This document shows positions 271 through 41,285 of a DNA stretch of 64,000 nucleotides, in pieces. The stretch comes from Bolinopsis microptera (Eukaryota): contig NC_087073.1 in NCBI RefSeq assembly GCF_026151205.1, positions 10,266,636-10,330,635 on the forward strand. The letters run 5' to 3'. A program made the position numbers and the translations under genes. Positions within the stretch are counted from its first letter, which is position 1. Each line of letters starts with the position of its first letter. The notes under the pieces were generated by a model. The model ran no database searches, was not told where the DNA came from, and was given only the letters and a program-made list of their open reading frames with translations.

Positions 271-3260
271 GAATTTTTTGCTCAAGCACATGCTGATTTT
301 TTGTTAATTTCAAAAGTCAACGAAGATTACATTTCATAAAATTGTAAACCCATGATGATTGATCTATTGATGATTTTTGTTTGATGCAAGTTATAAGTTA
401 TAAGTTTAGGTAATTTTGGATATCACAAAGTTAACGCAAAGATTCAGAAATCAGGAAGATAAATAATTTGAAGATTAGATTATGAAAATGAGTTTTCTAG
501 TTTTGAAGCTTCGTACATCTGCCCCCACCAAATGCCTGGCTGGATACTGTGCTGATATCCCCTAATATTTTACTGTAAAATATATCAGTATTTAACTTAC
601 TGATTTACTGGCAGGTTGAGTGCGTTTGTGAGAGTGACGGACCAGGAGAGATGGTTAAAGACGACCTGGCCACCTCACATACCATCCTCTTCTGGAACAT
701 GGTGTGGTGGTTCTGCAGGGAGAACCTCTCCAGCAGTCTCCCTCTCTACATTCCTCAGGCTTTTAGGCATCTCCACCCTAAAGGATATGTACGTGGACAA
801 TAAGAGTGTATTGAAATAGATAATAATAATAATAATAAGAGTATTAAGGGAGAATATAAACAGATTATTAACACACTGGAGAGTATTCTCATGTTTAGTG
901 TTCTATCTTGTTGGCTGGCCGTAGTTCATCTATTTAACTGGTTATTTCCCCTTCCTATGTAAGCTAATATCCTCATCACTTCAGCTGTGTCAGAGTGTGG
1001 AACTAAGTACTCAATGGTGCAAGACCGCGCACTCGCTCTACAATAACTTTGCGGAGTTATCACACAATAAGGATCTGCCTCAGTGCACGCAACTGTGGCG
1101 TGTAGTTGAGAACTTTATGCAGGATGATGTGAGTTGGGAAACTGAGAGAGGATATTCGTCATTTTGTGTGCAATAGGAGCACCAGTTGTAAAACTTAAGT
1201 TAACTTTTTATCAAATTCATCGTTGATAACTGATATCATTAACAACTTCATTCGCTCTGACAATGAATATCTTAATGACATTTCTACTTGTAACAACACG
1301 ATAACCCCAGCTGCAAAGTGCGGTGAACCTACTCGTAGTCCACCGAACAGAAGCCCACATTAATTTGTACCGTGAGTTGCTCTACCTGGGATGCAGATAT
1401 AAAAACAGTTTCTCTAATCTCCAGTTTGACGAGGATTACACTTCGTGTCTCGCTCGAATTCCTCAGGTATGATTAAAATGTGAAATATTCAGCTCGCTTC
1501 CTTTGTAACGTGACTTTTTTTCGCTAATTTTTCGCTAATTTTGATTATATTTTTGTAATGTAACCGGCGCCGCAACCTCTGATAAAAGTTTTTCTCTTTG
1601 AAAAGGTTCGACTACAACTGCCTTTCGAGTTGGAATTGTCGGATAGACTACATTCGAATTATAGTCCCACGGACGAGGATAAAATCAAACGATTGGTAGT
1701 GTGACCTTTACATTAATGTCAGCTGCGTACAATTAACTTTCCCCCTTTTTTGGTGGAAAGTTTTTAGTACATTTTTGGTCTTGTTGTGATCTTCATCAAA
1801 TTTTATACTCTTGAATGTGTATGTGTCAATAACTTATCAATCTTTTTGCTGTACACTCTCAGGTTTAAGCTTTCACTTAGTAGTCAGTATTGTAGCCACT
1901 TATAAAAGTTAGTGAAACTAAGCATCATAAATTTGTAGCCACGTGAAACATTTCAACTTTATAGTATACTAATATTCTCCCCAATTCTACATAGAATGCC
2001 TGTAGCTTTCTGATTTCCATTGACCGTTACACTCTGCTAACAACGGATGACGGATTGCATGTTTACTAAATCATAGAACTCGATAACTCTATATTATAGA
2101 TTCTATGATGATGGTAGACTATTATTGGTAACTACTATTAATAAAACATTAACTTAAAACCAGTAGCGGGTTTGACAGTTAGCGCAACAGCATGGGTGAT
2201 ATTATGTATTGTCAGTCATCCAGAACGGATACGCTAACCCGCTCATCATTTCAGATATCCTCCAATCGACTTCATCCAGACGATGTCCCGATGAAGCAAG
2301 CAGATATTCACTGTCGTCAAATGTTCTCCTGGTTGGGTTTATCTATCTGAGCAACACTTCCCACGCCTCAAACTCTCACGCGTTACACTTAACGCGTGAG
2401 GTGATGCGTTATAAAATATAAACATTTTGACGTTGAGGGAAAATGTGACGTCTCGGTAAAGGGTCCTGGTTTTCTTGTTTATTGTTTTTACACATTTTTA
2501 ATTTTGGACACGGGACGAAGCTGTAAATGTATCAATATATTATCAGATCAAAGTTAAAGTACCCAAATTTACATGGACAATTTTAACTGTATAATAATTT
2601 TTATCATCGAACATGTTAATTTAATGTACAGTACGGTTCAATCTCAATAAGTTTCTTAGTAACAAAAGCACTGTAATCAATTTAAAGTATTACATACCAT
2701 ACTATCTAGGATCTTAGACTATTCTCGAAACTTGTTGTCAGATGAAAAATGGCGCCTAAATTTAACTCATCTGATATTATGAACTCAATAATAAAGCTAA
2801 TGCCATGGTTGAAACCTTTCTTTTCTTACGAGATTGAACCCAAACAAAATCTATGTCTTGTCAGCGCAACTGTTTGTCAATTAACTTATAGACGTGTAAT
2901 GTTTTCAAATGATGTTTTAAAACTCTTTATCTTATCGCAGACTCGATAAGTTTTCATTATAATTCTGGTTCTAAACTTTAACGACCAATGTTTTGGTAAT
3001 TGTGTCTAGCTGCTAATCTTGATGAAAGTTCAACGTAAAACGATTAAAAAAGTAATTTCATCTTCAGAACTAGGCACAGTTAACATATAAATATTCGATT
3101 GGAATGAGGGGGCAGTTATAAGTTGGGAAACAGAGTTTATTAAAGAGTGTGTCCTGTCAAGCTGTTTGATTAATTTATTTGTTTTTATCTTTGTAAATAG
3201 AGTCTAATTATTAAATTGATTTTAAAATTCCTTGTTTTCGTTCTCCAAAACCAACTTATA

Positions 3261-3328
3261 TACTGGGGACTTCAGGCTTTTCTGTTCATAAATATACGGC
3301 GGAATGACAGACTGATCCCAGCCCAGTA
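3261..3328. mobile_element. ~68 bp hairpin MITE, TACTGGGG...CCCAGTA family, copy 1
   Basis: Terminal inverted repeat TACTGGGGAC / CCCAGTA. The internal CGGCGGAATGACAG motif is shared with copies at 3816, 16357 and 56720. Confidence 0.4.
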
Positions 3329-3815
3329 AGGTCACGACGTGATACAAGTACATATAATACTACTATACCGTGGCCAAACCTAATCTCCCAATTTCCCGAT
3401 TACCGATTCGAAATAGTTTATTTTTTCCCGATCCATGACTCAAGTGCCGAAGGCACAAAAGAGTCAAGGACAAGGGTTAGCGATCGAGTTTTTTTTTGGG
3501 ATATGGTAGCTTTGCGACCGTACCTGCGTGCGAGCGTGCGTGTCTGCGTACGTTTCGCCCACGTGTCTGCCTGCGCAAAGTTATTTTGCGCGAAAATCTG
3601 AATTAAACAATTGTTGGCGCGCGGTGCTGAAATGTTCAAGTACATTGTTAATTTCATCATGTACGCATCCCGCTAGGGACTAATTGATAGCATATTATTA
3701 TTATTTTGAGTTAGTATTACAATTTTGCACAGATCCGTGTCAGGTTGCATAAACAATAAACATATGGTTACATAGAAATATACACGATTTTCAAATTAAA
3801 TATGGAATTATATCA

Positions 3816-3892
3816 ACTGGGCGGCGCTCGGCCTGTCACTCCGCCATATCTGCATGCTTATAAACAGTAAAGACTGGGGTCCACAGGTGGTA
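3816..3892. mobile_element. Same short MITE family, copy 2, opposite orientation
   Basis: Reads ACTGGGCGGCGCTCGGCCTGTCACTCCGCC ... GACTGGGGTCCACAGGTGGTA. This is the reverse complement of the 16357 copy's ends. Confidence 0.35.
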
Positions 3893-4379
3893 TGGAATAT
3901 GATCAAATACTCCATCACGGATCGGGAAATTGAGCGGCCATCCACAAAAGAAAAGCGGCCGCATTTCTTGTTAAAAATAGACCTGATCATTAGAATGAAT
4001 CCCAAAATCTAAGTAAGCTAAGATGTAAAACATCCAACCTCTTTTTAGTTTGTAACATTAAAACAATATATACTTAGATTTTGAGCACATTTTTGAATAG
4101 ATCTGAGCAATTATAAAATGAATTCAAACATTTTACTAATACCAAACCTCCACTTCATATTAAACAAAAATAAGAAACAATTGAAATTTATGCTTGAGTA
4201 TTCATGAGTTTGGGTTTTATGTGTTTTTGCACATACAATAACAATTATGCTGTGCTTGGCATCGTGCAATATGTACAAAGTCCTTTGCTTGTAGTTGTGT
4301 ATCTGTACTTTACCTGGCACCCCAGTCCCTGTGCGCGGCGCTCTTTTCAAGCTTCCTGAGCAAGCTCCTGAACGATACG

Positions 4380-5068: not shown

Positions 5069-5371
5069 TAATCAATGCGTAATAAAACTACACACATCTT
5101 ACAATGACATTAATATTGTTGTAACTTTTGTCTTCATTTTCATTGTCCTGCATTTATTTTAGAGTGGGGTTACAATTAAAACGAATAAATTTGAAATCTC
5201 TAAAACCATATCTAATCATGCTAAATGATAATTTACCCAAATTAAAATCCATTGAAATATAATGTGTTACATACTGTATTATATCTTTTAATATTAATTA
5301 TCGGATATAATAGATATAAATTCTTTAAAAAAGTTGTCTATGAAACGTCCACCCCGACAAGTTCTCCGAAA

Positions 5372-6245
5372 TTATTTAACCAGGTTACAAAGAAATAGTC
5401 CCAACGGTAAAAACACACCAAGTCCTGAAATCGCAGCCATAGTTGGGATTTCACTTCCTTCCTTCAACACCAATGCTGATACGACAGTCCCCAAAGCAGC
5501 AGCAAGGCTTAAAACGATGTTGAACATCTTGGCAGACTGTTCTCCCAGGCTTCTGTTATCCAAACTCCACTTTTCGTAAAGAGAAAACTTGCTGGGGGTG
5601 TAAAGGGTAATATGAAACGTCTCGCCTATACCCATAAAAACGATTCCTATCACCAATTGGTAGGTGAAGTCAAAGAATTTGAAATCAGATGTTGTGGCTC
5701 CGAATGCCACTACTGTACCAATGTAATAGCACAAGTTTCCAACTGCCAGTGCGGGGATGACATAAAACTTCTTGATTCTACCTACTATGAAGCTCAATGT
5801 TAAAGCTGAAATGAATGCGACAATGCTGAAGATGCGCAGAAGTTTTACTGCTGAATTAAGGGAAAATGAGGAGGAATACAAGATCCTTACAGGTAGCACA
5901 TACATCATGAGATCACATACTGTATGGTTCAAGAACAGGGCTACATCAGGAAAATAGAATGCAATTTTTCGTGACCATAGATTGAGGGCCGGGCCGACTC
6001 TGTGGGACTCCTTATTTTTGGAATCAACTTTTTGTCTGCAACTTTCTGTCATCTCTATGATTTTTAGGAATGGCAGCAATAAAAGAGGGAGGATGTTGAA
6101 GGAAGCCATGCCAAAACCAACTAATACCCACCCACCAGCTACAAATAGCTCAGTGCACAATACTGCTGATAGAAATCCCCCAAATGACATGAAGCTACCT
6201 ATCAAGATCATCATCTTCTTATCTTCCTTAAGATATAAATCTATA
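5372..6245 (-). CDS. Multi-pass membrane protein, terminal coding exon. Possible MATE/MOP-type transporter; that assignment is a guess.
   Basis: 280-aa minus ORF with many hydrophobic helices. The splice acceptor ttacatttcag sits just upstream at ~6246-6256 (minus sense). Stop at 5372. Confidence 0.45.
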
Positions 6246-6421
6246 ACCTCTCCCTGAAATGTAATATTTATTACTGCTTAACTGCAATATAAAAATAAAC
6301 AAATTTAAATTTGTAATTTTTGGAAGCTTTGAACCATATGCTATGCATTTGGCACAGTTAAGGATAAAAGGTAAAAAGACAAATGACCGCAGATACATAG
6401 TAGAATAGTTCCTCACCTGAA

Positions 6422-29760: not shown

Positions 29761-30995
29761 ACCACGTGATACAACGTCCTGGTAGGTTGTAAACCTAAAA
29801 TTCCTAATATTGACCGCGGTCGACGAGTCCAACCCAGCTAGTGCGCATTTTGGTAGGGTATAAACCTACAAGCTACTAGTATTTTGAAAATTTAAACAAG
29901 TTATATCATTTGTCAAGATTTAAAAATTGAGCGGTTTTGTAATTTTTTGTCGATTTCACATTCAACATTGGAATAGAACAGTAACAAATATTAAAAATTT
30001 AAGCACGATTCTTTAAAAATTTAATGAATGCAGCCCACATACAATTTAATGTACACGTTTTGAGTTTATATTTGTATCAGAGGTGCGAAAAGGAACTTTG
30101 TTAATAATGTAATCTTGATTTGAACTTGGAGCCACAAGGCCAGGGTGATTTTCAAATGTTTCCTCGCTGTATCGTTGCCCAAACATTTTAGGCAACTTAT
30201 TAGCTAGCATCTTTTAAAAGATATTAGCCTCTCTTCCATTCCACCGTTGTTAATACTGTTCTTTTGTCAGACATATTAATCAGTTGGTCTGTCGACAGTC
30301 GAGATGGAGGCTTATAGAATATATTGGAGACCAGTATATATATATTTTACTAACTGCATTTAGCTAGTTTATAGTAAATACACACGATCGCAGAATAGAG
30401 GAGTACAATTGGGCTCTTTGTTCTGTGACCGTGTTTCCTCGGTGGGCCGACAGGTTTTTGTTGTGTAGTAGTGCTGGGGAAAAAACACGCTTTAACTATC
30501 AATGAGAGTAAATATTTTTAATTCTCGACCTTAGTGTGAAGGTTAAATGACATGAGGGGCTCTGCCTTGACAATTTTATATTCTAGTACACTAGCACTTG
30601 TTATTTGGGTTAATGGTTAATGGTTATGATAGTTAAAATATGACCATAAGCATCATTTAAAACCAGAAATCAATATATATATATAATGCTGTACAATGTG
30701 GTGAAGGCCCGATATTTGCAGCTTTTCTGTAGAACAGAAATATCAGTAAAACAAAAATATAATTTGTATGCCAATTTTATTCTTTCTTAAAGTTAAGTTG
30801 TTTGCCCCCTGGAAATAGACGAACAATCAACAAATAACTGCGACTGTGTCATTGCCCCAGTATTATGCCCAATTTTGTCATAGAATTAGCATATCCAATA
30901 TCCATGGCAATAATGATTGTTCCCCCACGAAATCTACATGCATTTTCCTGAAGTTACTCCACAATAATTTATTTTATACTGCCTTCAATTATTAA

Positions 30996-31027
<32 letters not shown>

Positions 31028-32379
31028 CACCCTGATTTTTTTGTGAAACTTGGTTTCGAGATAGCAGTTGATCAACAAACTAAGACCGGTGACCGAACTT
31101 GTGAGGGGGTCCCGGACCCCAACCGCCAAACGGTGCCCGCGGGGCAGCCACGCCCATATTTGGTCCAAATTAGGCCCAATTTAGCCAAATACCCTGAACA
31201 TGCCCAAAATACAGATTTTAGGTGCTTTACTTGTAGCTAGTGGTCTCCTGAACTCGTATATGAATTTTCATCAAGATTGGACAAAAAATGACTGAGTTAT
31301 GAGCCAAAAACCATATGACCATATTTGGGCATACGCTCCAAAATTCATAGATTTTGGCCCATTAATTGGTCAAATATCATTATTTTTGAATGAAACCAAC
31401 TTTATATGGAAGGTAAGCCTATACTACACATTCTCTATGATTATCAGCTTAATATCTACCTAACTGTGGATTCTGTGTTCAAATAATCGCAAAAAAAGAA
31501 CAAAATCGCCTATATCTCAGTTCGCGATATTTGCAAAAACTGATTTCGCTCAAAACAATAGAACTCAATAGGGTTTCAATATTTTTACATGAAATTTTCA
31601 GAATCAACGTAGAATCGCATTTCGACCTTAAGTTTTGTATTGGAATTTTGAGTTAGGCCTTTAAAAAAATTTGGCGGCCAAATTCCAAATTTTGCAATGC
31701 GAAATTCAGAATTTGGCCGCCAAATTTTTTTAAAGGCCTAACTCAAAATTTCAATACAAAACTTAAGGTCGAAATGCGATTCTACGTTGATTCTGAAAAT
31801 TTCATGTAAAAATATTGAAACCCTATTGAGTTCTATTGTTTTGAGCGAAATCAGTTTTTGCAAATATCGCGAACTGAGATATAGGCGATTTTGTTCATTT
31901 TTTGCGATTATTTGAACACAGAATCCACAGTTAGGTAGATATTAAGCTGATAATCATAGAGAATGTGTAGTATAGGCTTACCTTCCATATAAAGTTGGTT
32001 TCATTCAAAAATATTGATATTTGACCAATTTATGGGCCAAAATCTATGAATTTTGGAGCATATGCCTAAATATGGTTATATGGTTTTTGGCTCATAACTC
32101 AGTCATTTTTTGTCCAATCTTGATGAAAATTCATGTACGAGTTCAGGGAACCACTAGCTACAAGTAGAGCATCTAAAATCTGTATTTTAGGTATGTTCAG
32201 GGTATTTGGCTAAATTGGGCCTAATTTGGACCAAATATGGGCGTGGCTGCCCCGCGGGCACCGTTTGGCGGTTGGGGTCCGGGACCCCCTCAAAAGTTCG
32301 GTCACTGGTCCTAGTCTGTTGGTCAGCTGTTATCTCGAAACCAAGTTTCACAAAAAAATCAGGGTGAACCCCCCCCCCC
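30996..32379. mobile_element. Large near-perfect palindromic foldback element with homopolymer termini (G30 ... C11), flanked by TTAA. Element B.
   Basis: G run 30996-31025 and C run 32369-32379. The two ~680-bp arms are about 95% identical as reverse complements around a centre near 31688 (GGCGGCCAAATTCCAAATTTTGCAATGCGAAATTCAGAATTTGGCCGCC). TTAA at 30992-30995 and 32380-32383. Confidence 0.75.
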
Positions 32380-32443
32380 TTAATGTTTTTTAGATTTTTC
32401 TATGTAGTTGAATTGATTCGCCAATTTGTTTTAGCTTCATGTT

Positions 32444-35325
32444 ATGGCTGAAATCCTGGATGAAGATATTCTAGCCAATATATACTCTGAAGCCAAGAAA
32501 TGCGAAGAAGATGGGTTTTTAGATGAAGCACTCTCACTTTACCAAGACGCATTCAATCTCCGAGAATCAGAGTTTTCAAAACTAGCTATTGATAGACTGT
32601 CAGATATGATAAATACTAAATTGGCTTCTAACTTTGATGCATCACTTCATCTCAAAGCATCTCCACGCTTCCAGTCTACCCCATACTCCACTCAAGTAGA
32701 TGATGTAGCTTTAAATGGACCATCTGTTTACGGTGGTTCAAGGACAACACCTGTAAGATCAGTCTTAAAGAATAAGAACTTGAACATAAGTGGTATTAGT
32801 CAGCCAAACAATATGACAATAGCAGTACAAGAAGGTGAACAATCATTTGATGCTGGCCATTACAACAACCTCATAATTGAAGCTCGCTCACTTTATAAGA
32901 ACAGCAAGCAGCTTGAGAAAGCCCTTGAAAAATACAATGAAGCTTATTCCTTACACCAAGATGCAAAATTGTACAAACGGATACTAAAAATTAACCAAGA
33001 GCTAAAATTAAAGCAGGTTCAGACATATGTTGAAACGTCAGCAAAAGAATCAGAATCTGATAAGGAGGACCTGATCGATCAATATAACAACCTTGTTATC
33101 AATGCTAAAGCTTGCTTAGAATCTGACAGAGCAGATGAAGCTCTTCGACTATATCAAGAGGCTTACAAGGTTGACCCTTCTGAAAAACTTCTTCAAAAGA
33201 TAACTAAATTAGAAGAGGAATTAGCTCCGGCTGATAACAGCACTAGTGTAGACGTCGAGCAATACAACAATCTTATCAAGGAAGCAAAAGCAAAGCTGAA
33301 GGAGGAAGACTATGAAGGTGCCCTTTTGAAGTATGAAAATGCAAATGAGATTAATCCTACGGAGAAGCTGCAAAAGAGAATAGACAAGATCAAAGACTTC
33401 ATTGAAAATGATGATGAAGAAGATGATGATGATGATAATTATGAGCAGGTCACTCCAACAAATGATCCTTATCCATCAAACGATCAAGATTTGAATAAGT
33501 CTGTTGTTAAATCTGAGGTTGATGAACATTGCAATAGCTTGGTTAAGAATGCTCAAATTTGGGAGGGGAAAGATATGTTGAGTGAAGCATTAGATGCATA
33601 CAGAGAAGCTCAAAATTTAAAGCCCTGTCCTTATTTTGTTCAGAAGATCAACGATTTAGAAAAGAAGCTTGTTATCAATGATAACAATGAAAATGATGAT
33701 GAATCTGAGCTAAATGTTGAACATTATAATCAGCTCATTATCCAAGGAAGGGAGCATCTTAATGATGGCAATTTGTCAAAAGCTTTAGAAGCTTACAATG
33801 AGGCGCATAATCTGAATCCCTCTGAAAAGCTTTCAAAGAGGATCACAAAAATCGAACAAAAGTTGTCTGCTGAATTAGAAAAGGAGGATGAAGAACCGGA
33901 GATAGATGATGAAATCAGGGATTATTATGAAGCTACCATTGCAGACGCCAAGAACAAGGAAGACAAACTTCTGTACGATGAGGCAATCGCTCTTTATGAA
34001 GAAGCTCATGAACTGATTCCAAGTGACAACATCTCCCAAAAAATTGCTAGTTTGGAATTTAAAAGGGACTCCGAAAGAGATCCTCAAGATCACAAGCCAT
34101 CTTCAGTACAGAGCCTCAATGATCTATCGGCTGATGACAAAGCAAAGTACAATGAGTTGATAGTCAAAGGGAAATATGCTCAGAAAGAGTCAAAAATTGA
34201 AAAGGCTCTCAGTTATTACAAAAAGGCTGCTCAAATTTATAAGAATGAGAAACTGGGTACTAGAATACAGAAACTGGAAACGTTTTTGAAAGAGGAAGCT
34301 GAGAACGAAAATCTCTACACGGATATTGGTGATGGCCTTTTCCTTACAAATGATATCCACGACAAATTGTATCAATACCAGAGGGAAGGTGTGAAATGGA
34401 TGTGGGAGCTTTATCGAGCTGAGCATGGTGGCATTCTTGGAGATGATATGGGTCTTGGTAAAACGATTCAAACAATAGCTTACTTGCAAGCCCTGTTTCT
34501 GATGGAGGAAATTTCGACAGCCATGCTGTGTATGCCTCTGTCACTTATCAATAACTGGCAGGTAGAATTCAAAAAATGGGCTCCAGAAATCCGTGTTGAA
34601 TTGTTTCATGGCTCAAAGAATGAAAGAGAAAGAAATGTTAAGAAAGTCATCAAAAGAGGGGGTGTTATCTTGACGACTTACGGGATTATCGAGAAAAATG
34701 TAGAGTTCTTGGTTAACACCTCGTTCAAGTGGGACTATCTTGTGCTGGATGAGGGTCACAAAATCAAAAATCCCACCAAAACCAGTAAAGCTATGAGAAA
34801 TGTGCCGTGTAATCATAGGCTCCTTATTTCTGGTACACCTATTCAGAATAATTTAAAAGAACTTTGGGCTTTGTTCGACTTCGTGTCCAGAGGTAAACTT
34901 TTGGGAACCATGACAACTTTTAAGATGAACTATATAACACCTATCGAAAGAGGTAGAGAAAAAGATGCCTCCAAAGGGGAAGCTAAACTTGGAGCTAAAC
35001 TTGCAGAAAATCTCAGAAAGGTGATTGACCCCTATTTCTTGCGTCGGACAAAGGCTGAAATCAAGAAAAACGGCAATGATGCCTCCAGCGGAGTAAGCAA
35101 GCTTGGAAAAAAGAACGAGCTGTGTGTCTGGCTCCAGCTGTCAAATGTGCAACTCAACCTCTACAAAGCTTTTTTGACTCTCGATTCAGTTCGGGATGCA
35201 ATGAACTCTTCTAAATCCCCACTCGCTGCACTTACTGTTTTAAAGAAGATATGTGATCATCCCAGACTTGCTACCAAGTTTGAGGCTCTACGAGAAGTTA
35301 TGGATGCAGAAAGTATGAGCATGAA
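32444..35325 (+). CDS. ERCC6L: ERCC6L/PICH-like SNF2-family DNA translocase, coding exon 1. N-terminal TPR-like repeat array plus SNF2 ATPase N-lobe.
   Basis: ATG at 32444, with the splice acceptor tttgttttag just upstream at 32423-32432. Seven or eight ~50-aa repeats of the form [HQ]YNNLIxxA...AL..Y.EA..L.PSEKL.KRI.KIE, then a DEGH-box helicase region: LYQYQREGVKWMWELY...GGILGDDMGLGKT...LVLDEGHKIKN...LLISGTPIQNNLKELWALFDF. Donor ATGAA|GTAAGT. Confidence 0.8.
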
Positions 35326-35442
35326 GTAAGTTTTAAAAGTTAGAGAAAGGAAATTAGTCTAGTTGTGTTGTACTTTCTTGTGACTTTGACTTTCGAGTTA
35401 ATACTCGTGATGTTAATAAATCTGTTAACTCAATTATTTCAG

Positions 35443-35641
35443 ACCTGAGGATCATCAGAAACTCCTTTCAACAGTTGAGCTTCCTAAAGATCCAACGGAT
35501 GACATTCTTCAAAGAGAAAGCTGTAAACTAGAGTTTGCTCTAGGATTGCTGGATCTTCTGGCTGCAGATGGACATAGAACACTTTTATTTTCAACCTCTC
35601 TCAAGATCCTGAATTATATCCAGTCGATGATAGCTGACAAG
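35443..35641 (+). CDS. ERCC6L: ERCC6L-like exon 2
   Basis: Acceptor ttatttcag. (K)PEDHQKLLSTVELPKDPTDDILQRESCKLEFALGLLDLLAADGHRTLLFSTSLKILNYIQSMIADK. Donor AAG|GTATTA. Confidence 0.7.
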
Positions 35642-35796
35642 GTATTAAATAATAGATAAATATCTTCACATGTAAATTCTAACGTTTTGCTTTTCGAATA
35701 AATTCATTTCACGTCCGTTCAATTAGATATTTATCGAATTTTCAGTTCGTCATTACTTATTATACCGTAATATTCCTCTTATATATTTAACTGCAG

Positions 35797-35959
35797 GGTA
35801 TGCAATATTTGCGGATAGATGGTTCCATCAACAAGCCAGGTGACAGACAGGCAATAATCGACTCATTCAACACTGACATGAGATACACTGTTTTATTACT
35901 GACAACTCAAGTTGGAGGTGTTGGGCTCAACCTTACCTCCGCTGATAGGGTTATCATCT
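35797..35959 (+). CDS. ERCC6L: ERCC6L-like exon 3, helicase C-terminal domain
   Basis: Acceptor taactgcag. GMQYLRIDGSINKPGDRQAIIDSFNTDMRYTVLLLTTQVGGVGLNLTSADRVII. Donor T|GTAAGT. Confidence 0.7.
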
Positions 35960-36185
35960 GTAAGTTATTGTCATTTCTGTCGTCCTTTTTGTAAGTTTGG
36001 GTGTTGTGTGATCGCTTTTAGCAGCATTCTTTCGAAATTGAACGGTAAATTATCACTGAAACTGTAGGAAACTCAAGCAATGGGACGATGTTTGACTGCC
36101 ATTCTGTACTTAATGATAAAGCTAATATTTACTGTGTACTATAACAGCTGCTCTTACATAAAACTAACTGATATAACGTTTGCAG

Positions 36186-36375
36186 ATGATCCTAGCTGGA
36201 ATCCAGCTACTGATGCCCAGGCTGTAGACAGGTCTTATAGGATAGGACAAACAAAACCAGTCATTGTCTACAGGCTTCTTACCAGTGGAACTATCGAGGA
36301 GAAAATTTACAGGAAACAAGTGTTTAAAAACAGCATCACCCGGCAGGCCACTGGAGAATCATTAGATCCAATCAG
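36186..36375 (+). CDS. ERCC6L: ERCC6L-like exon 4, SNF2 motifs V-VI
   Basis: Acceptor gtttgcag. (Y)[62 protein letters not shown]. Donor AG|GTATGC. Confidence 0.75.
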
Positions 36376-36565
36376 GTATGCTACTTGTCACCTCAATTCA
36401 AAAATGTTGTTTTTAAGAGCAGGGAACAGGCTTTAGTTTCTAAGAAGGCCTTCCAACCCCCTTATAAGATTTTCCAAGCTTTTAAACTTGGTGTCCAATA
36501 TACTTTTGCCAGTAAATGTTATTCAAGGGATTGTATACAATAACAATTAATTTTAAAACGTGCAG

Positions 36566-36714
36566 GTACTTTACGAACCAAGAGATCTCACAGTTATTTG
36601 AGCTGGGGAACACTTCGGTGAGTGAAACCTGTACTCAACTTGAGGAACTGCACGGAGCTGCCAGGAATCATTCTGACCAAGTTAAGAGTGACTTGAAGGC
36701 TATCGAGGAAATGG
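36566..36714 (+). CDS. ERCC6L: ERCC6L-like exon 5. The 3' end is uncertain; an alternative donor GTGAGT lies at 36619.
   Basis: Acceptor acgtgcag. (R)YFTNQEISQLFELGNTSVSETCTQLEELHGAARNHSDQVKSDLKAIEEM. Donor G|GTAAGT. Confidence 0.55.
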
Positions 36715-36867
36715 GTAAGTTCGTCCACTGAAATCTAACTATCCTACATTAGTGAGTTTCAATGAGTCAAGGCATAAACTAGTTGGTTTAAAAAAAGTTT
36801 AACAACATTCCCAATTAAACAGCTTAATTTGGTTATAGTTTTAAGTTTTAACGTATTGTTTTGCTAG

Positions 36868-36959
36868 GTGCCATTGCCTGCAGTGACCATGATTTACTCT
36901 TTTCACATGAGGAAGTAGTGGAAAATACTCCCGAGGAGCGCCAGTTCGTAGAGGACAGG
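36868..36959 (+). CDS. ERCC6L: ERCC6L-like exon 6
   Basis: Acceptor ttttgctag. (G)AIACSDHDLLFSHEEVVENTPEERQFVEDR. Donor AGG|GTAAGA. Confidence 0.55.
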
Positions 36960-37980
36960 GTAAGATCCCTTCTGTTTAATACGGTCAGAATTAGTTGTTC
37001 AAACTTACCGCCCCCTATAAAATGTATCTCAGATCAATAAAAATTTGTGTCATCAGACTTGAACTCTTTTGAAGGATCAACAAGAATTGTTCTTGAACTG
37101 TCACAATAACACTTGAACTGTCACAATAACACTGTCACAATAACACTGTCAAAATCACTGCATTATGTAGCGCGCGAACGCCTAACCTCTTAATTGTTGA
37201 TTCGCGCGAAATTCAAAATCTTAAATTTATTTAAATTATTAGCTCATCGCATCGCGCGCGTCGACCTTATCACATGTTAATATGATATATGATATAATTA
37301 CGTTATGACTTTATGAGTTCAGCCATACATGTCATGTCGGTTGTGATTTGTGAAAATAGGAAACACCTGGATAAGAATAGGATCACATCGAATCACCAAG
37401 TGTATAATGACTGATGAGTCACGACTCCAGCTAGTTTTTCTAGCTTCAGGGGAGGTACAGCTTTTCAGAAGGACGATTTCTGCGATTTCAATCAGATAGG
37501 ATATCTCGGATTTTATCAATCCTTACGCCGATCCGGCTCCCCTGACCCCTAGGATACAGCTGAGCGGCGATAGGATGTGTAAGTTCCGAGAGGCGATAGG
37601 ATTCGCTCTCGGACCCGATAGGAAACGTAAAACCTATCGGATCCGAGCGCTAATCCTAGCGGAGAAATGATTTAACGATTCTGGTCATGCTGTACAGCAT
37701 GACCAGATGGCGAACTCACCTGCTTGCCAAATTGCTTTAATTGTGGTCTGAAGTAAGTACTGGGTTCCTGGATAGGGTTCTCAGTATGGTCGCAGGCTCT
37801 AATCTCATTCGACAGCAGGCTACTGTAACTGATCAAAACGAAAGTCTAGAGAACACCTGAACGTTGCCGCGATTTTCACGAAGTTGTCACACACTGTTTA
37901 AATCACTCGATTACCGTGTATGATAAATTAATTACAGGTATCCGATACAGTTCGACTCCATTTAATGGATGTATTTGCAG

Positions 37981-39187
37981 GTACAACAAGCGAAAAGGCA
38001 CATGGCTGCTGAAGCAGCGGCAGCTGGACCAGTTCCGTTCCCTAACTACACAGCCCCTAATCGCAACACACACAACCCTAACCCAGGAGCTACTGCTGTG
38101 CCACTAGGTGGGGGAATGAGAGCACCTTGGGAGCCTACTAGAGGGCACAGTATGTGGAATAATAAGGAGGCGGAAGTTGAGGCTGTTCGTAAAGATATCG
38201 AGAGGGTCGAGATAAGAGCTAGAGAGTCTCCTTATTTCAAAGAATCGGAGGGCAGGACAGCAGAGGTCATAACAATTGACGATGATGATGATGAAAACGA
38301 AGTTCAAGTCAAGGAGACTAAAGAAGCGAAGAAACTTTCATTGACTGATTACAAAAACAGACAGATGAAGATATTCGATTATGTCGACAGTCCGACCCAA
38401 GAATCTCGTGAAATCCCAAGTAGTCCTACCTTCAAAAGCCCAAGTAGTCCTACCTTCAAAAGCCCAAGTAGTCCTACCTTCAAAAGCCCGGTCAGGCCAA
38501 GAAGGTCCATCAAGAAGAACGTGGTTACACCTAGGAAATCGCTCAGTAATCCAGTGGGTCAGATAATCGCTAACCATATCCAGAACACTCCTAAAAAGAA
38601 GTCTGCATATAGTGACGATGAAGTTGAAGATGATCTGGAGAATTCCAGGTATGACAACCTGAACAAGCCGCCTTGTTTGGACGATTCTGAAGATGAGGAT
38701 GATTATTATGATGGTCAAGAAGAGCAAGAAGCAGATGAAGAACACGAACAAGAATCCAAAGAGGAGCAAGCGGCCGATGTTGATGACGATGAAGAATATG
38801 ACGAAGAGGAAGAAGAGGAAGAAGAGGATGAAGAGGAAGAAGTCGTAGAAGTCGTAGAAGTGGAAGAAAAGGTTGATGATCTAGAAGGCTTAGTCAAGAG
38901 CTTAAAGTTCAACTCGCCTCACAGCTCGGATCAGCCAGCTAATCAGCAAATTGAAAAGACTACGGAGATCAATCGGAGACCACCCTTGGAGCCCAAAAAC
39001 CTCTTAACTGAGAAACTCAAAACACAGGCCACAGAATCTGAAGTTAGAACTCCAAACCTTCATCAACTTGACCCTCGGCAACAAGATCAGTCCAAGTCAC
39101 AGCCGAGAAAAGAGGAAAAGTCAAAAAGAAGTTCAAAAGTCGACAAAGAGAACAAACAACCGGCCTCATCTAAATCCTCCAACTCAG
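37981..39187 (+). CDS. ERCC6L: ERCC6L-like large C-terminal exon: low-complexity acidic region, three tandem SSPTFKSP motifs, K/S-rich tail. The 3' boundary is tentative; the ORF runs to 39315.
   Basis: Acceptor tatttgcag at 37980, in frame with exon 6. Long ORF 37969-39315 with D/E-rich stretches (DDDDENEV, EEEEEEEDEEEEVVEVVEVEE). Candidate donor CAG|GTTTTT at 39187. Confidence 0.5.
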
Positions 39188-39332
39188 GTTTTTACAGGCT
39201 ACAGAGTTTTATATCTTCAGTTTGTTTTACAGAACAAAGGTCAGCTACCTTTATCTTGAACTTCAATTACAATTTAAAATTTAAGAACCTAAAATTCTGT
39301 ACTACATTTGAATAATTTCATTTTCAATTCAG

Positions 39333-39453
39333 TGAACTGTACGTGCGGCCGTTTACAAGCTGCGTTGGCAAAAGGATACAAAGTGACGAAATGCAAATGT
39401 ATGTGCAGTCCTACTGAGGACGAAAAATACAATCGATATCTTGAACGTGGACT
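39333..39453 (+). CDS. ERCC6L: ERCC6L-like penultimate exon (Cys-rich). Tentative.
   Basis: Acceptor ttttcaattcag. (V)NCTCGRLQAALAKGYKVTKCKCMCSPTEDEKYNRYLERG. Donor CT|GTAAGT. The phase is compatible with the 39187 donor. Confidence 0.35.
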
Positions 39454-39625
39454 GTAAGTTTATCGAAATTGATTTGGAATAAAAGTATTTTGGAATACTT
39501 TAAACTTAAACTTTATGACTTATACTCAGAATCAATAATTCAATTTATCTTTCAACATATTAAAATCAAGCTGCACAGTTAAACGCTACCTTCGTTTGCA
39601 AAATAACGTTATCAAAATAATTTCA

Positions 39626-39790
39626 GATATTTTATCAGTAATTTTATATCGAAAAACACCAGGGAACATCAGAAAGCCGGTAACGCAGGAAAAGCTCTAC
39701 AGTATTACAAAGCAGCTCTTCAGTACAGAAATGATGATACCATTGTGCAAAAGGCGTATCTCACACTTAAAAAGCAGCTGAAGAGCTAGT
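39626..39790 (+). CDS. ERCC6L: ERCC6L-like terminal exon encoding a C-terminal TPR, as in PICH. Tentative.
   Basis: Acceptor aataatttcag. (L)YFISNFISKNTREHQKAGNAGKALQYYKAALQYRNDDTIVQKAYLTLKKQLKS, then TAG at 39788-39790. Confidence 0.4.
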
Positions 39791-40789
39791 GAGTGGTAAC
39801 TGGAACGAACTCTAATTCAGGAAAAATTCAAACTGAAGCTACAGTCGTGGCGACTTTCGGATGAACATAAAAGAGAATTGTGAAGGAGATGTGTTTGAAT
39901 CCTTTAGTTTTAATACATCGAGGAAAAATCGTAAGGAAGTAATGTCTGCTTTGAACTGTTACTCATTTGAGCTAAATTGAAAGATTGTTATTTATTTTAT
40001 GTTAGCTAATGAAGCACAAAAAGACCGAATATATACTAGATTTCAAAACAACTAAACATCACGCCAAGATTAATCAGTCCTCTTCGTTAACATTAGTTAA
40101 TATTAATGGTGGCAGCTTTATCCTGCTTACTCTCACCGTGCTAGTAGACCTTGCATTCTCTGTAATGAGTTGTTTTTAAAATTGAATTTCTTAATGGACA
40201 AACGTTATTTTAAGTACTTAGTCTTGAAGCCAAAGTGGTTGGCTGGAATTTAGTCTTTTATCTGAAATAATTCTGTATCTTATGTATTTGATCAAAATGT
40301 GAATTTTAGCTAATTTTGTTAACACCTTACGTAATGGCATGCCTTCGTCCTCATGTTGAACATTTTCTCCCTTCCTGTAATAAAACCCAATGAAACCATT
40401 CATCAACCTATAATTTGGGTGGCTTCAAACAAAAGGAGTAAGAAAATTGATAGTCAAGGTACCACAACTTGTAGACTTTGGAAGTGAACGTATCTTAGCA
40501 AGACGATAGTATGCTATTATTCCTGCTGTCACTTACTCAGTTTCGCTGGGAAAGTTAAGTAGACGGATTATAACAGATTCCCGGCTTGTTTGATCATCGA
40601 ACCAAGATGAGTCTGCTTTTCTTGACATTACTTTTCTTTTTCTTTGTCCGAATAGCTCGTAACTTTCATCCTTCGGACAATCAGAAATTAGTTTTATTAA
40701 ACCATGCACTAACGGAAAAATTAAAAATACATCTTCTCAGTTCTATACTATAGATAAGCATGATTGTTTTCTGAGCTTACTTCAGACAT

Positions 40790-41285
40790 AGATATAGGAG
40801 GGAGCGACACGTAGTCTCCATCAACTCTCTGCCGGTTCAGTCTGTGCAGCTGTCTTGTCAGTTTCCCTTCCGTCCTCTTCAGCTCCTTCTCCTGCTGCCT
40901 CAACAACGTCATGTTCCCTTCATGCTCCTGAGAAGTGAGAGTGATCAGTCTCAAATAAAGGAATAACCGCAGTTTGGTATTTATCCAAGAAATTATTCAT
41001 TTTATCTATGAACAAAATGGAGACAGTCACTTCGCTAGTCTTCTCCATCAGGAACAGTTAAAACATTTTAAGCCTTTGTCGCCATAAAGAACTCATAGAA
41101 TCAAGCAGCAATATCAAACACGTAATGCCGGAGCCTGAATTATTTATTCCGAAAGGAAAATACGACGAGCTACCTTCTCGATTCCGAGAATATATTTAGA
41201 AAGTTTTCTCTCCTGGTACTCGTTCTGTTTCTTGGCACTGTCCTCCAGCCTGTGACTTCGCTCCTTTATCGCCTTCAGGTTACAA
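40790..41285 (-). CDS. Possible coiled-coil protein exons on the minus strand, of unknown identity
   Basis: Minus ORF 40748-40954 reads LLRQQEKELKRTEGKLTRQLHRLNRQ. The segment 41190-41285 reads RLQDRCNLKAIKERSHRLEDSAKKQNEYQE on the minus strand. Confidence 0.2.

Follow-up and report, generated by a model that had tools for sequence, protein, structure and literature searches.

An eightfold array of N-terminal TPR modules in a probable ctenophore orthologue of the PICH/ERCC6L translocase

The gene considered here, on contig NC_087073.1 of the ctenophore Bolinopsis microptera (RefSeq assembly GCF_026151205.1), encodes an SNF2-type helicase preceded by about 640 residues of largely repetitive sequence, and it raises the question to which helicase family the protein belongs and what the repeats might do. 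We analysed it in a stretch of 64,000 nucleotides (forward-strand positions 10,266,636 to 10,330,635; hereafter the window, to which all coordinates refer; all features of the gene lie on the plus strand). Judged from its sequence relationships, the gene is very probably the ctenophore orthologue of PICH (PLK1-interacting checkpoint helicase, ERCC6L). PICH, a much-studied protector of chromosome segregation, is a double-stranded DNA translocase of the SNF2 family; in dividing human cells it works to clear ultrafine, thread-like anaphase bridges. Its N-terminal tetratricopeptide repeat (TPR) module, the N-TPR, is present eight times in the window protein. The overall description, that of a PICH/ERCC6L orthologue with an eightfold N-TPR array as a multivalent docking platform on a translocase, appears likely.

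The coding region (32444–39789) was delineated by in-frame assembly with GT-AG introns and by tblastn to related loci. It comprises exons 1 to 5 (32444–35325, 35443–35641, 35797–35959, 36186–36375 and 36566–36714) and exons 6 to 9 (36868–36959, 37981–39187, 39333–39453 and 39663–39789), and together they encode 1709 residues in one frame, up to a TAG stop codon (39787–39789). Exon 1 belongs to an open reading frame (ORF) of 961 codons (32444–35329) that is uninterrupted from Met1 through helicase motifs I–III. At least six further ctenophore sequences retain an equivalent ORF of 920–960 residues, and four of these begin in much the same way after Met1. The G+C content of the window is approximately 33–48%. 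Four related ctenophore loci (L001–L004) were fetched for comparison. All nine exons were recovered by tblastn in collinear order in L001 and L002, with match edges near the predicted junctions; in L004, the most distant locus, every exon was matched except exon 6, for which there was no significant match. Identities over exons 5–9 are 88–100% in L001 and 61–91% in L002. Exon 7 is 88% identical in L001, 61% in L002 and 32% in L004, exon 8 is 95%, 85% and 57% identical in the same loci, and exon 9 is 70% identical in L004. The junction of exons 6 and 7 (FVEDR/VQQAK) continues the conserved 'IQQRVQKAQ' of primate ERCC6L, and the weakest junction is that of exons 7 and 8 (donor GTTTTT). The closest named relative is a protein of Mnemiopsis leidyi (P0001, 'hypothetical protein ACHWQZ_G011223', 79% identity); an ORF from an ENA assembly (P0002) is 95% identical to the window protein.

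The first SNF2 ATPase lobe spans residues 645–942 (34376–35269; Pfam SNF2-rel_dom, E = 1e-69) and contains the Walker A motif GDDMGLGKT (34439–34465, residues 666–674) and the DEGH motif (34748–34759, residues 769–772), both found by motif scan. The Helicase_C lobe is encoded by exons 2–4 (35546–36247, residues 996–1102; Pfam E = 3.3e-21), and the scan placed an 11-residue helicase motif in exon 4 (36218–36250, residues 1093–1103). A first-pass annotation of the DNA had reported SNF2 motifs split over canonically spliced exons, and both the motif positions and the splice sites agree with our model. A database query with the full-length protein gave 35 matches dominated by the acidic low-complexity tail, and residues 623–1241 (619 residues, the helicase and its downstream part) were used instead. 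The best non-ctenophore matches to this segment are mostly named 'DNA excision repair protein ERCC-6-like' (42–52% identity, 512–652 bits, coverage mostly 80–100% of the query) and come from corals (cnidarians), bivalves (molluscs), horseshoe crabs (chelicerates), a starfish (echinoderm), tunicates and vertebrates. Next in the ranking after animals are ERCC6L-like proteins of one nucleariid and two amoebozoans. All of the best 120 matches (at least 512 bits) are ctenophore sequences, proteins named ERCC-6-like or proteins without a name; none among them is named ERCC6L2 or CSB. Montipora, Desmophyllum, Tachypleus and Mercenaria ERCC6L are among the best non-ctenophore full-length matches (47–49% identity, 99% coverage). 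Among solved structures the top match is human ERCC6/CSB (343 bits, E = 4.6e-101 in a PDB sequence search). CSB orthology was not accepted on this ranking, because the PDB matches contain no PICH helicase chain and the search therefore cannot separate PICH from CSB.

Over 465 aligned helicase columns, the window protein is 49–57% identical to ERCC6L and its non-animal relatives, 39–41% to CSB-like proteins and 32–35% to SWR1/CHD/ATRX-type proteins; primate ERCC6L reaches 52% over the helicase core. A neighbor-joining tree of the SNF2 domain, which held no ERCC6L2 sequence, places the window protein together with the Mnemiopsis protein (100% support) inside the ERCC6L clade and the CSB-like proteins outside it, the deeper nodes being read by topology only. 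Downstream of the helicase, the ERCC6L-specific segment 'RYFTNQE...SDHDLLFS' (36368–36947, residues 1143–1221, exons 4–6) was identified with a profile of 88 non-ctenophore ERCC6L sequences, which gives the window protein 62.6 bits (E = 5e-20) and CSB-like proteins less than 5 bits. No CSB-type winged-helix domain was found in the window protein with Pfam; PF25875, which the fungal CSB-like matches carry, we take to be the Rad26/CSB winged-helix family. ERCC6, CSB and Rad26 belong to the same SNF2 subgroup and offer the closest solved helicase structure, but differ in their lower core identity and in lacking the post-helicase segment. A PICH family domain has been described as specific to PICH orthologues (PMC8565832, PMC5737856), and residues 1143–1221 are a candidate for this domain, the two being equated here by assumption. 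The preference of the first-pass annotation for PICH over ERCC6 is thus supported by the match scores (512–652 bits for ERCC-6-like proteins versus 343 bits for human ERCC6), by the tree, by the post-helicase profile and by TPR units at both termini.

The N-terminal repeats were examined with a hidden Markov model (HMM) seeded with the N-terminal 58 residues of primate ERCC6L and extended in two rounds. As circularity had to be avoided, only non-ctenophore matches were admitted; the final N-TPR HMM has 49 positions and contains 87 sequences. It matches the window protein eight times before the helicase, at residues 15–44, 139–187, 213–261, 273–320, 364–409, 427–474, 495–538 and 568–615, with scores of 21, 28, 49, 41, 7, 54, 15 and 41 bits. 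Of 500 shuffled versions of the N-terminal 636 residues, two scored as much as 7 bits and none as much as 15 bits. The repeat array seen by the first-pass annotation is therefore real, its '7–8' copies being exactly eight. Pfam also recognizes the region (TPR_2, 50.6 bits with a cut-off of 27; TPR_14, 26.3 bits with a cut-off of 23.5). The annotation had further held that vertebrate PICH has a single N-terminal TPR, and this extends well beyond vertebrates: every one of the 83 non-ctenophore ERCC6L proteins that the HMM matches has a single N-terminal unit, and 13 of these also give a shorter C-terminal match. The stretch before Walker A measures 9–265 residues in 94 non-ctenophore matches versus 620–665 in ctenophores. 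A six-frame scan of the 64-kb window revealed no further N-TPR units outside the array.

Aligned with the single N-TPR of other animals, the eight units require only one single-residue gap column. They are not contiguous: the start-to-start spacing is 60–124 residues for 49-residue units, and the linkers of approximately 11–81 residues are in some cases acidic, while others carry conserved short motifs. At the position of human Tyr21 (given with the preceding residue), modules 1 to 8 have IL, HY, QY, QY, HC, HY, YY and KY, a tyrosine in six of eight. Module 1 (32468–32614, residues 9–57; 21.2 bits, E = 1.1e-7) is the most diverged copy, with the leucine at this position. Module 2 (32858–33007, residues 139–188; 28.2 bits, E = 6.6e-10) contains a one-residue insertion. 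It is followed by module 3 (33080–33226, residues 213–261; 49.4 bits, E = 1.6e-16; Pfam TPR_14 at 221–249) and module 4 (33260–33406, residues 273–321; 41.4 bits, E = 5e-14). Module 5 (33527–33673, residues 362–410; 7.1 bits) is the weakest match, with the cysteine at the Tyr21 position and 'PCPYF' replacing 'PSEKL', and its counterparts in orthologues score 13–23 bits. Module 6 (33722–33868, residues 427–475; 53.8 bits, E = 7e-18) is nearest to the PICH consensus of other animals and aligns with residues 9–56 of the 57 residues of the human N-TPR chain 5jno_B (E = 4e-4). Module 7 (33923–34069, residues 494–542) scores 15.0 bits (E = 9e-6). Module 8 (34145–34291, residues 568–616; 41.0 bits, E = 7e-14) directly precedes the helicase, and its spacing to the helicase entry 'GDGFFL' is as in coral and horseshoe-crab PICH. 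Since it sits where other PICH proteins carry their single N-TPR, module 8 is probably the ancestral copy.

A related unit closes the protein. The C-terminal TPR is encoded by exons 8 and 9 (39425–39780, residues 1659–1707); the N-TPR HMM detects it at residues 1659–1693 (profile positions 1–35) with 14.9 bits (E = 9.5e-6), in a pattern as in full-length fish and coral PICH, in line with the TPR-like end noticed before. The sequence P0036 ends in the same way as the window protein at this TPR.

The human N-TPR is a three-helix bundle, helices A to C (PMC5737856). We modeled residues 1–650 with AlphaFold2 from an alignment of eight ctenophore sequences and obtained three-helix runs for most units, with a predicted local distance difference test (pLDDT) mostly of 80–93 per block and a predicted template-modelling score (pTM) of 0.21 for the whole. 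Module 1 has helices at 2–22, 26–39 and 43–68 (block pLDDT ~82–92), and even the weakly matching module 5 is modeled with three (349–375, 379–392 and 396–412; block pLDDT 80–90). Segments of low confidence (pLDDT < 50) are 62–133, 199–207, 263–269, 324–354, which is the acidic low-complexity linker after module 4, 411–421, 480–485 and 545–555. Modeled alone, module 6 reached a pLDDT of 98 and a pTM of 0.81 (helices 2–14, 18–31 and 35–48). In Foldseek this model superimposes on 5jno_B with an r.m.s.d. of 0.8 Å over 41 columns (TM-scores 0.79/0.68, rank 3) and on 1.5 repeats of Hop TPR1 or CTPR3 with TM-scores of 0.77–0.87; the E-values of 0.2–0.3 are not significant because a single unit is so short. 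In these models, each copy is one TPR (helices A and B) plus a capping helix C, in total approximately 49 residues. The suggestion of the first-pass annotation that each repeat resembles a TPR pair gave way to three-helix units like 5JNO. With the 650-residue array model, Foldseek returned local TPR similarity only (TM-scores 0.06–0.22, r.m.s.d. 28–44 Å).

By these models, beads on a string describes the array better than a superhelix does. Classical TPRs are contiguous 34-residue repeats stacked as a superhelix. The ctenophore units share the helix A/helix B signature with the classical domains of Hop TPR1, the CTPR designs and OGT, but are single TPRs, each with its own third-helix cap and with flexible linkers between them. 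Hence the 34-residue helix-turn-helix signature is present, while contiguous superhelical stacking is, by prediction, absent.

Identity between the modules of the window protein is 8–41%, versus 55–82% to the units at the same position in the ctenophore sequence P0005. Most modules are closest to their positional counterpart in P0040 as well (55–69%). Module 2 shares 74% of its residues with the orthologous unit at the same position in P0005 and 66% with that in P0040, module 7 is 82% identical in P0005 and 67% in both P0040 and P0037, and module 8 is 57–82% identical to its ctenophore counterparts. The alignment of eight ctenophore sequences is positional throughout: modules 2–8 occur in all eight, module 1 is missing or degenerate in the two most distant (P0037 and P0040), and all eight modules correspond one to one in six. 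Relative to L001, the ratio of nonsynonymous to synonymous substitution rates (dN/dS) is 0.19 in the modules, 0.44 in the linkers and 0.04 in the helicase; relative to L002, the proportion of nonsynonymous differences in the modules is 0.13, the synonymous sites being saturated. Because the copies are kept one to one across six ctenophore sequences and under purifying selection, the array is, by these comparisons, old and functional. A ctenophore-like N-terminal fragment (P0152) also has eight units, two of which are near-duplicates of the unit-7 type, and therefore suggests some lineage-specific turnover of the array. The exon before the helicase in L004 contains two units only (types 6 and 8), with a LINE (long interspersed nuclear element) insertion upstream and then the contig end. 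Here a LINE-like element with reverse transcriptase and endonuclease ORFs occupies 1359–4297 of the minus strand, a short way upstream of the PICH exon, and 'TTTCTAG' at 5098–5116 could be a splice acceptor. As this acceptor sits nine bases before the ATG of the ORF, the two-unit exon may be internal, with more units beyond the contig end.

The array was then sought outside ctenophores by searching 1.84 billion representative proteins with a 26-unit profile. Two of the best 150 matches resemble ctenophore PICH, P0037 (with SNF2 motifs) and the fragment P0152; no SNF2 motifs were found in the other 148. A PICH with two or three units could rank below the best 150, and none occurs among the 83 sampled orthologues. 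By eye, the nucleariid-labelled match has an N-TPR-like segment and a dictyostelid match a C-terminal TPR-like segment. A full-text literature search found no paper on ERCC6L in ctenophores. Bacterial TPR arrays dominate the best matches of the profile search; these look-alikes (P0153–P0156, P0158, P0165, P0166 and others), an uncharacterised repeat class, are proteins of 1400–2800 residues, mostly with signal peptides and with up to 16 near-full-length unit matches; Pfam gives the three examined generic TPR names only. Like the ctenophore module, they match the full 49-position profile of a TPR plus third helix repeatedly. They differ in their signal peptides, their Ig-like or carboxypeptidase-regulatory-like N-termini (by eye), the lack of SNF2 motifs and the contiguous arrangement of their units, with a spacing of ~50–60 or 116–128 residues. 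The likeness is probably that of a generic TPR pattern and not one of common descent with PICH.

What the array might do can be approached from the human protein. Its single N-TPR binds the BD1 domain of BEND3 with a dissociation constant of ~1.2 µM, Tyr21 is essential for this contact (Y21A abolishes it), and the contact is required for the stimulation of the ATPase by BEND3, to which the AAA mutant is refractory (PMC5737856). Deletion of the TPR regions of PICH also abolishes the co-precipitation of RIF1 (PMC8565832). Because the human N-TPR is a protein-docking site, we propose by analogy that the eight separately folded units on flexible linkers would form a multivalent docking platform tethered to the motor. 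Such an array could engage either one partner in several copies, and then with high avidity, or a range of partners, and the docked factors would be concentrated on the DNA that the motor tracks. We put this mechanism forward tentatively, at somewhat short of even chances. Human BEND3 is reported to be an octamer, i.e. multivalent on the partner side (PMC5737856); that its subunits and our units agree in number is most likely a coincidence.

As each unit has kept its own sequence identity across ctenophores, the units may bind different partners. The array might accordingly be a built-in multivalent adaptor whose non-redundant units each take a partner of their own or jointly hold one oligomeric partner in a fixed arrangement, a speculative extension to which we give rather low odds. 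If it were true, one translocase would carry a set of bridge-processing or chromatin factors along DNA, and the eight natural N-TPR variants could help to identify which ligand was ancestral for this module, which the best matches trace back to non-animal eukaryotes.

The main rival mechanism is self-association: through contacts between N-TPR and C-TPR or among N-TPRs, the motor would form oligomers or cover DNA cooperatively. Contacts between N-TPR and C-TPR were suggested as a possibility by the authors of the human N-TPR structure (PMC5737856), and ctenophores have retained a C-terminal TPR whose kinship with the N-terminal unit can still be recognised; but the conserved identity of each module fits distinct roles better than eight equivalent sites, and we regard self-association as unlikely. 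We find it improbable that the eight units pack as one continuous TPR-like superhelix forming a single large ligand-binding domain. Pfam TPR families do match the region (TPR_2 at 50.6 bits), TPR superhelices are the best local Foldseek matches (E ~1e-7) and bacterial proteins carry look-alike units at 50–60-residue spacing. Against such packing stand the irregular spacing of the 49-residue units, the acidic or low-complexity linkers, which evolve faster than the modules and have a pLDDT below 50, the pTM of the whole array and the TM-scores and deviations obtained with real superhelices.

Two further alternatives concern the gene itself, and we consider both very improbable. The protein could be orthologous to a different helicase of the ERCC6 group (ERCC6/CSB or ERCC6L2), with TPR units gained independently. 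The leading place of human ERCC6 among solved structures would suit this, although it arose from matches that contain no PICH helicase chain; the naming of the best 120 matches, the lower core identity of CSB-like proteins, the missing winged helix and the ERCC6L-specific post-helicase segment all speak for PICH, and the TPR units fit the PICH N-TPR profile and the 5JNO chain specifically, helix C included. The long N-terminus could also be an artefact of the gene model, either a separate upstream gene or in-frame non-coding sequence. The exon structure is a prediction, and a palindromic insertion of 1365 bp only 65 bp upstream of the ATG makes for an unusual promoter region. Such an artefact is hard to reconcile with the single 961-codon ORF from Met1 to helicase motifs I–III, with the comparable ORFs (920–960 residues) in six further ctenophore sequences, four of which begin in much the same way, with the purifying selection on the modules or with module 8 in the N-TPR place of every PICH.

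Several points weigh against the reading of the gene as a PICH orthologue with a docking array. The alignment behind the array model is shallow (eight sequences), which leaves packing between modules possible; the neighbor-joining tree was taken without any ERCC6L2 sequence; the junction of exons 7 and 8 is predicted on a weak GTTTTT donor; and the ctenophore protein is known from genes and models alone. On the human side, neither TPR is needed for bridge resolution or viability (PMC11797016), so that the core role of the TPR unit is unsettled even there, and conservation of the contact surface of BEND3 BD1 has been described among vertebrate homologues only (PMC5737856).

Besides the TPR units, the protein contains several short conserved elements. 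Two motifs lie in the linker between modules 1 and 2 (32672–32758): QSTPY (residues 77–81), an S-T-P pattern, and TPVR (residues 102–105), a full CDK pattern. Residues P74, Q77–Y81, T102 and P103 are invariant in the eight ctenophore sequences, and the block of residues 61–130 has a pLDDT of 28–40. The two motifs are candidates for a polo-box docking site and a CDK site, respectively. In the fragment P0152, the nearest equivalent of QSTPY by eye is 'YGTPGE'.

Exon 7 (37981–39187) encodes a low-complexity, probably disordered tail delineated by tblastn and a four-species alignment. It contains the SIM-like (SUMO-interacting-motif-like) sequence VITIDDDDDE (38263–38295, residue 1321), a conserved stretch LSLTDYKNRQMKIFDY (38335–38394), SSPTFKSP three times (38419–38490; S-[ST]-P at residues 1372, 1380 and 1388), TPRK (38521–38544), a further conserved stretch YDNLNKPPCLDDS (38650–38688) and an acidic run (38680–38868, residues 1459–1521), the poly-acidic stretch noticed before. 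The islands 'AVPLGGGMR.PWE', 'VI[TV]I', 'LSL.DYK.RQMKI', 'TP.K.L', 'NHI.N' and 'YDNLNKP.CLD' are kept in four species; acidic residues follow 'VI[TV]I' in the three closer loci, and its core is found in all four. SIM-like patterns, a hydrophobic core with acidic residues, occur at residue 1321 and at residue 1516 (VVEVEE); they are putative, from the pattern only. Pattern matching alone gives S-[ST]-P at residue 78 in addition to the three named and full CDK patterns at residues 102, 1394, 1408 and 1428. The three SSPTFKSP repeats pointed out by the first-pass annotation are present, encoded by a 24-nucleotide tandem repeat (minisatellite, 38411–38489, 3.3 copies, 98% matches), but are not conserved in L001, L002 and L004. 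As the motif is single in L001 (SSPTFKSP) and L002 (SSPVFVSP) and absent from L004, the triplication is, on this comparison, a recent in-frame expansion in this genome only. We rejected the triple as a conserved PLK1/CDK cluster, its copy number not being conserved in relatives. The short phosphorylation and SIM patterns of linker and tail are leads and not findings.

Exon 8 encodes a Cys-rich segment, NCTCGRLQAALAKGYKVTKCKCMC (39335–39406, residues 1629–1652), conserved within ctenophores and conceivably a small metal-binding element. A 'KC.C' occurs in the same place before the C-TPR in two coral PICH proteins (P0041 and P0044) and in none of the vertebrate sequences looked at. The ABBA/ROB pattern F-x-[ILV]-[FY]-x-[DE] is absent from the whole protein, apart from loose matches inside TPR helices; the conserved YDNLNKPPCLDDS is conceivable as a diverged equivalent. 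In human PICH the ABBA/ROB motif, F953-x-L-F-x-E958, binds RMI1–RMI2 (bioRxiv 10.64898/2026.09.10.750333). Being described for human PICH only, it was not treated as defining the family.

In a direct comparison, the window protein shares with human and vertebrate PICH the post-helicase segment, a three-helix N-TPR directly before the helicase (5JNO chain B), the C-terminal TPR and an extended acidic tail, probably disordered, in which SIM-like and S-[ST]-P sequences occur as putative patterns. It differs in having eight N-TPRs versus one, in the ~640 residues before the ATPase domain, in the unmatched ABBA/ROB pattern and in the Cys-rich segment before the C-TPR, as in corals. Thr1063 of human PICH is a CDK1-primed polo-box docking site in an S-T-P context; such a site has no clear counterpart in the ctenophore tail. 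Cnidarian and other invertebrate ERCC6L proteins have the N-TPR at the same position relative to the helicase, but only one N-terminal unit each.

The surroundings of the gene show some unusual features. A near-perfect palindrome of 1365 bp (31015–32379), with two arms of 682 nucleotides that are 96% complementary and separated by one nucleotide, ends 65 bp upstream of the ATG and adjoins a run of 26 G at 31000–31025. It is absent from the collinear upstream region of L001 (window ~30993 corresponds to L001 ~9938, window ~32385 to L001 ~9943), and related sequence, ~80% identical, is found in L003 at ~5849–6321. By its appearance, the palindrome is a foldback-type mobile element that has entered the promoter or 5' untranslated region; a long-read assembly artefact is also conceivable. 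Intron 6 (36960–37980, 1 kb) contains short tandem repeats (37092–37155, units of 14 and 20 nucleotides) and CG-rich stretches and aligns to the L001 intron in parts only (81–93% identity). There were no Rfam matches in 30500–41000, intron 6 included. The public Mnemiopsis model P0001 (1250 residues) tracks the window protein to the end of exon 6 and continues with 29 unrelated residues, 'SFLQIITGNVPVACYARPFSLHCRK...'. It apparently reads into intron 6, and the tail and C-terminal TPR of exons 7–9 are therefore missing from it.

For the family, the result corrects this public Mnemiopsis model, which ends in intron 6 without tail and C-terminal TPR, and shows that the PICH layout, with a TPR unit at either terminus, also holds for ctenophores. 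The eightfold array is a lineage-specific variant of a known protein and no new class of system, with no direct bearing on any long-standing open question. It provides a natural multivalent reagent and eight sequence variants for seeking the ancestral partner of the N-TPR, and the retention of eight individually conserved copies under purifying selection implies that the N-TPR unit does something selectable.

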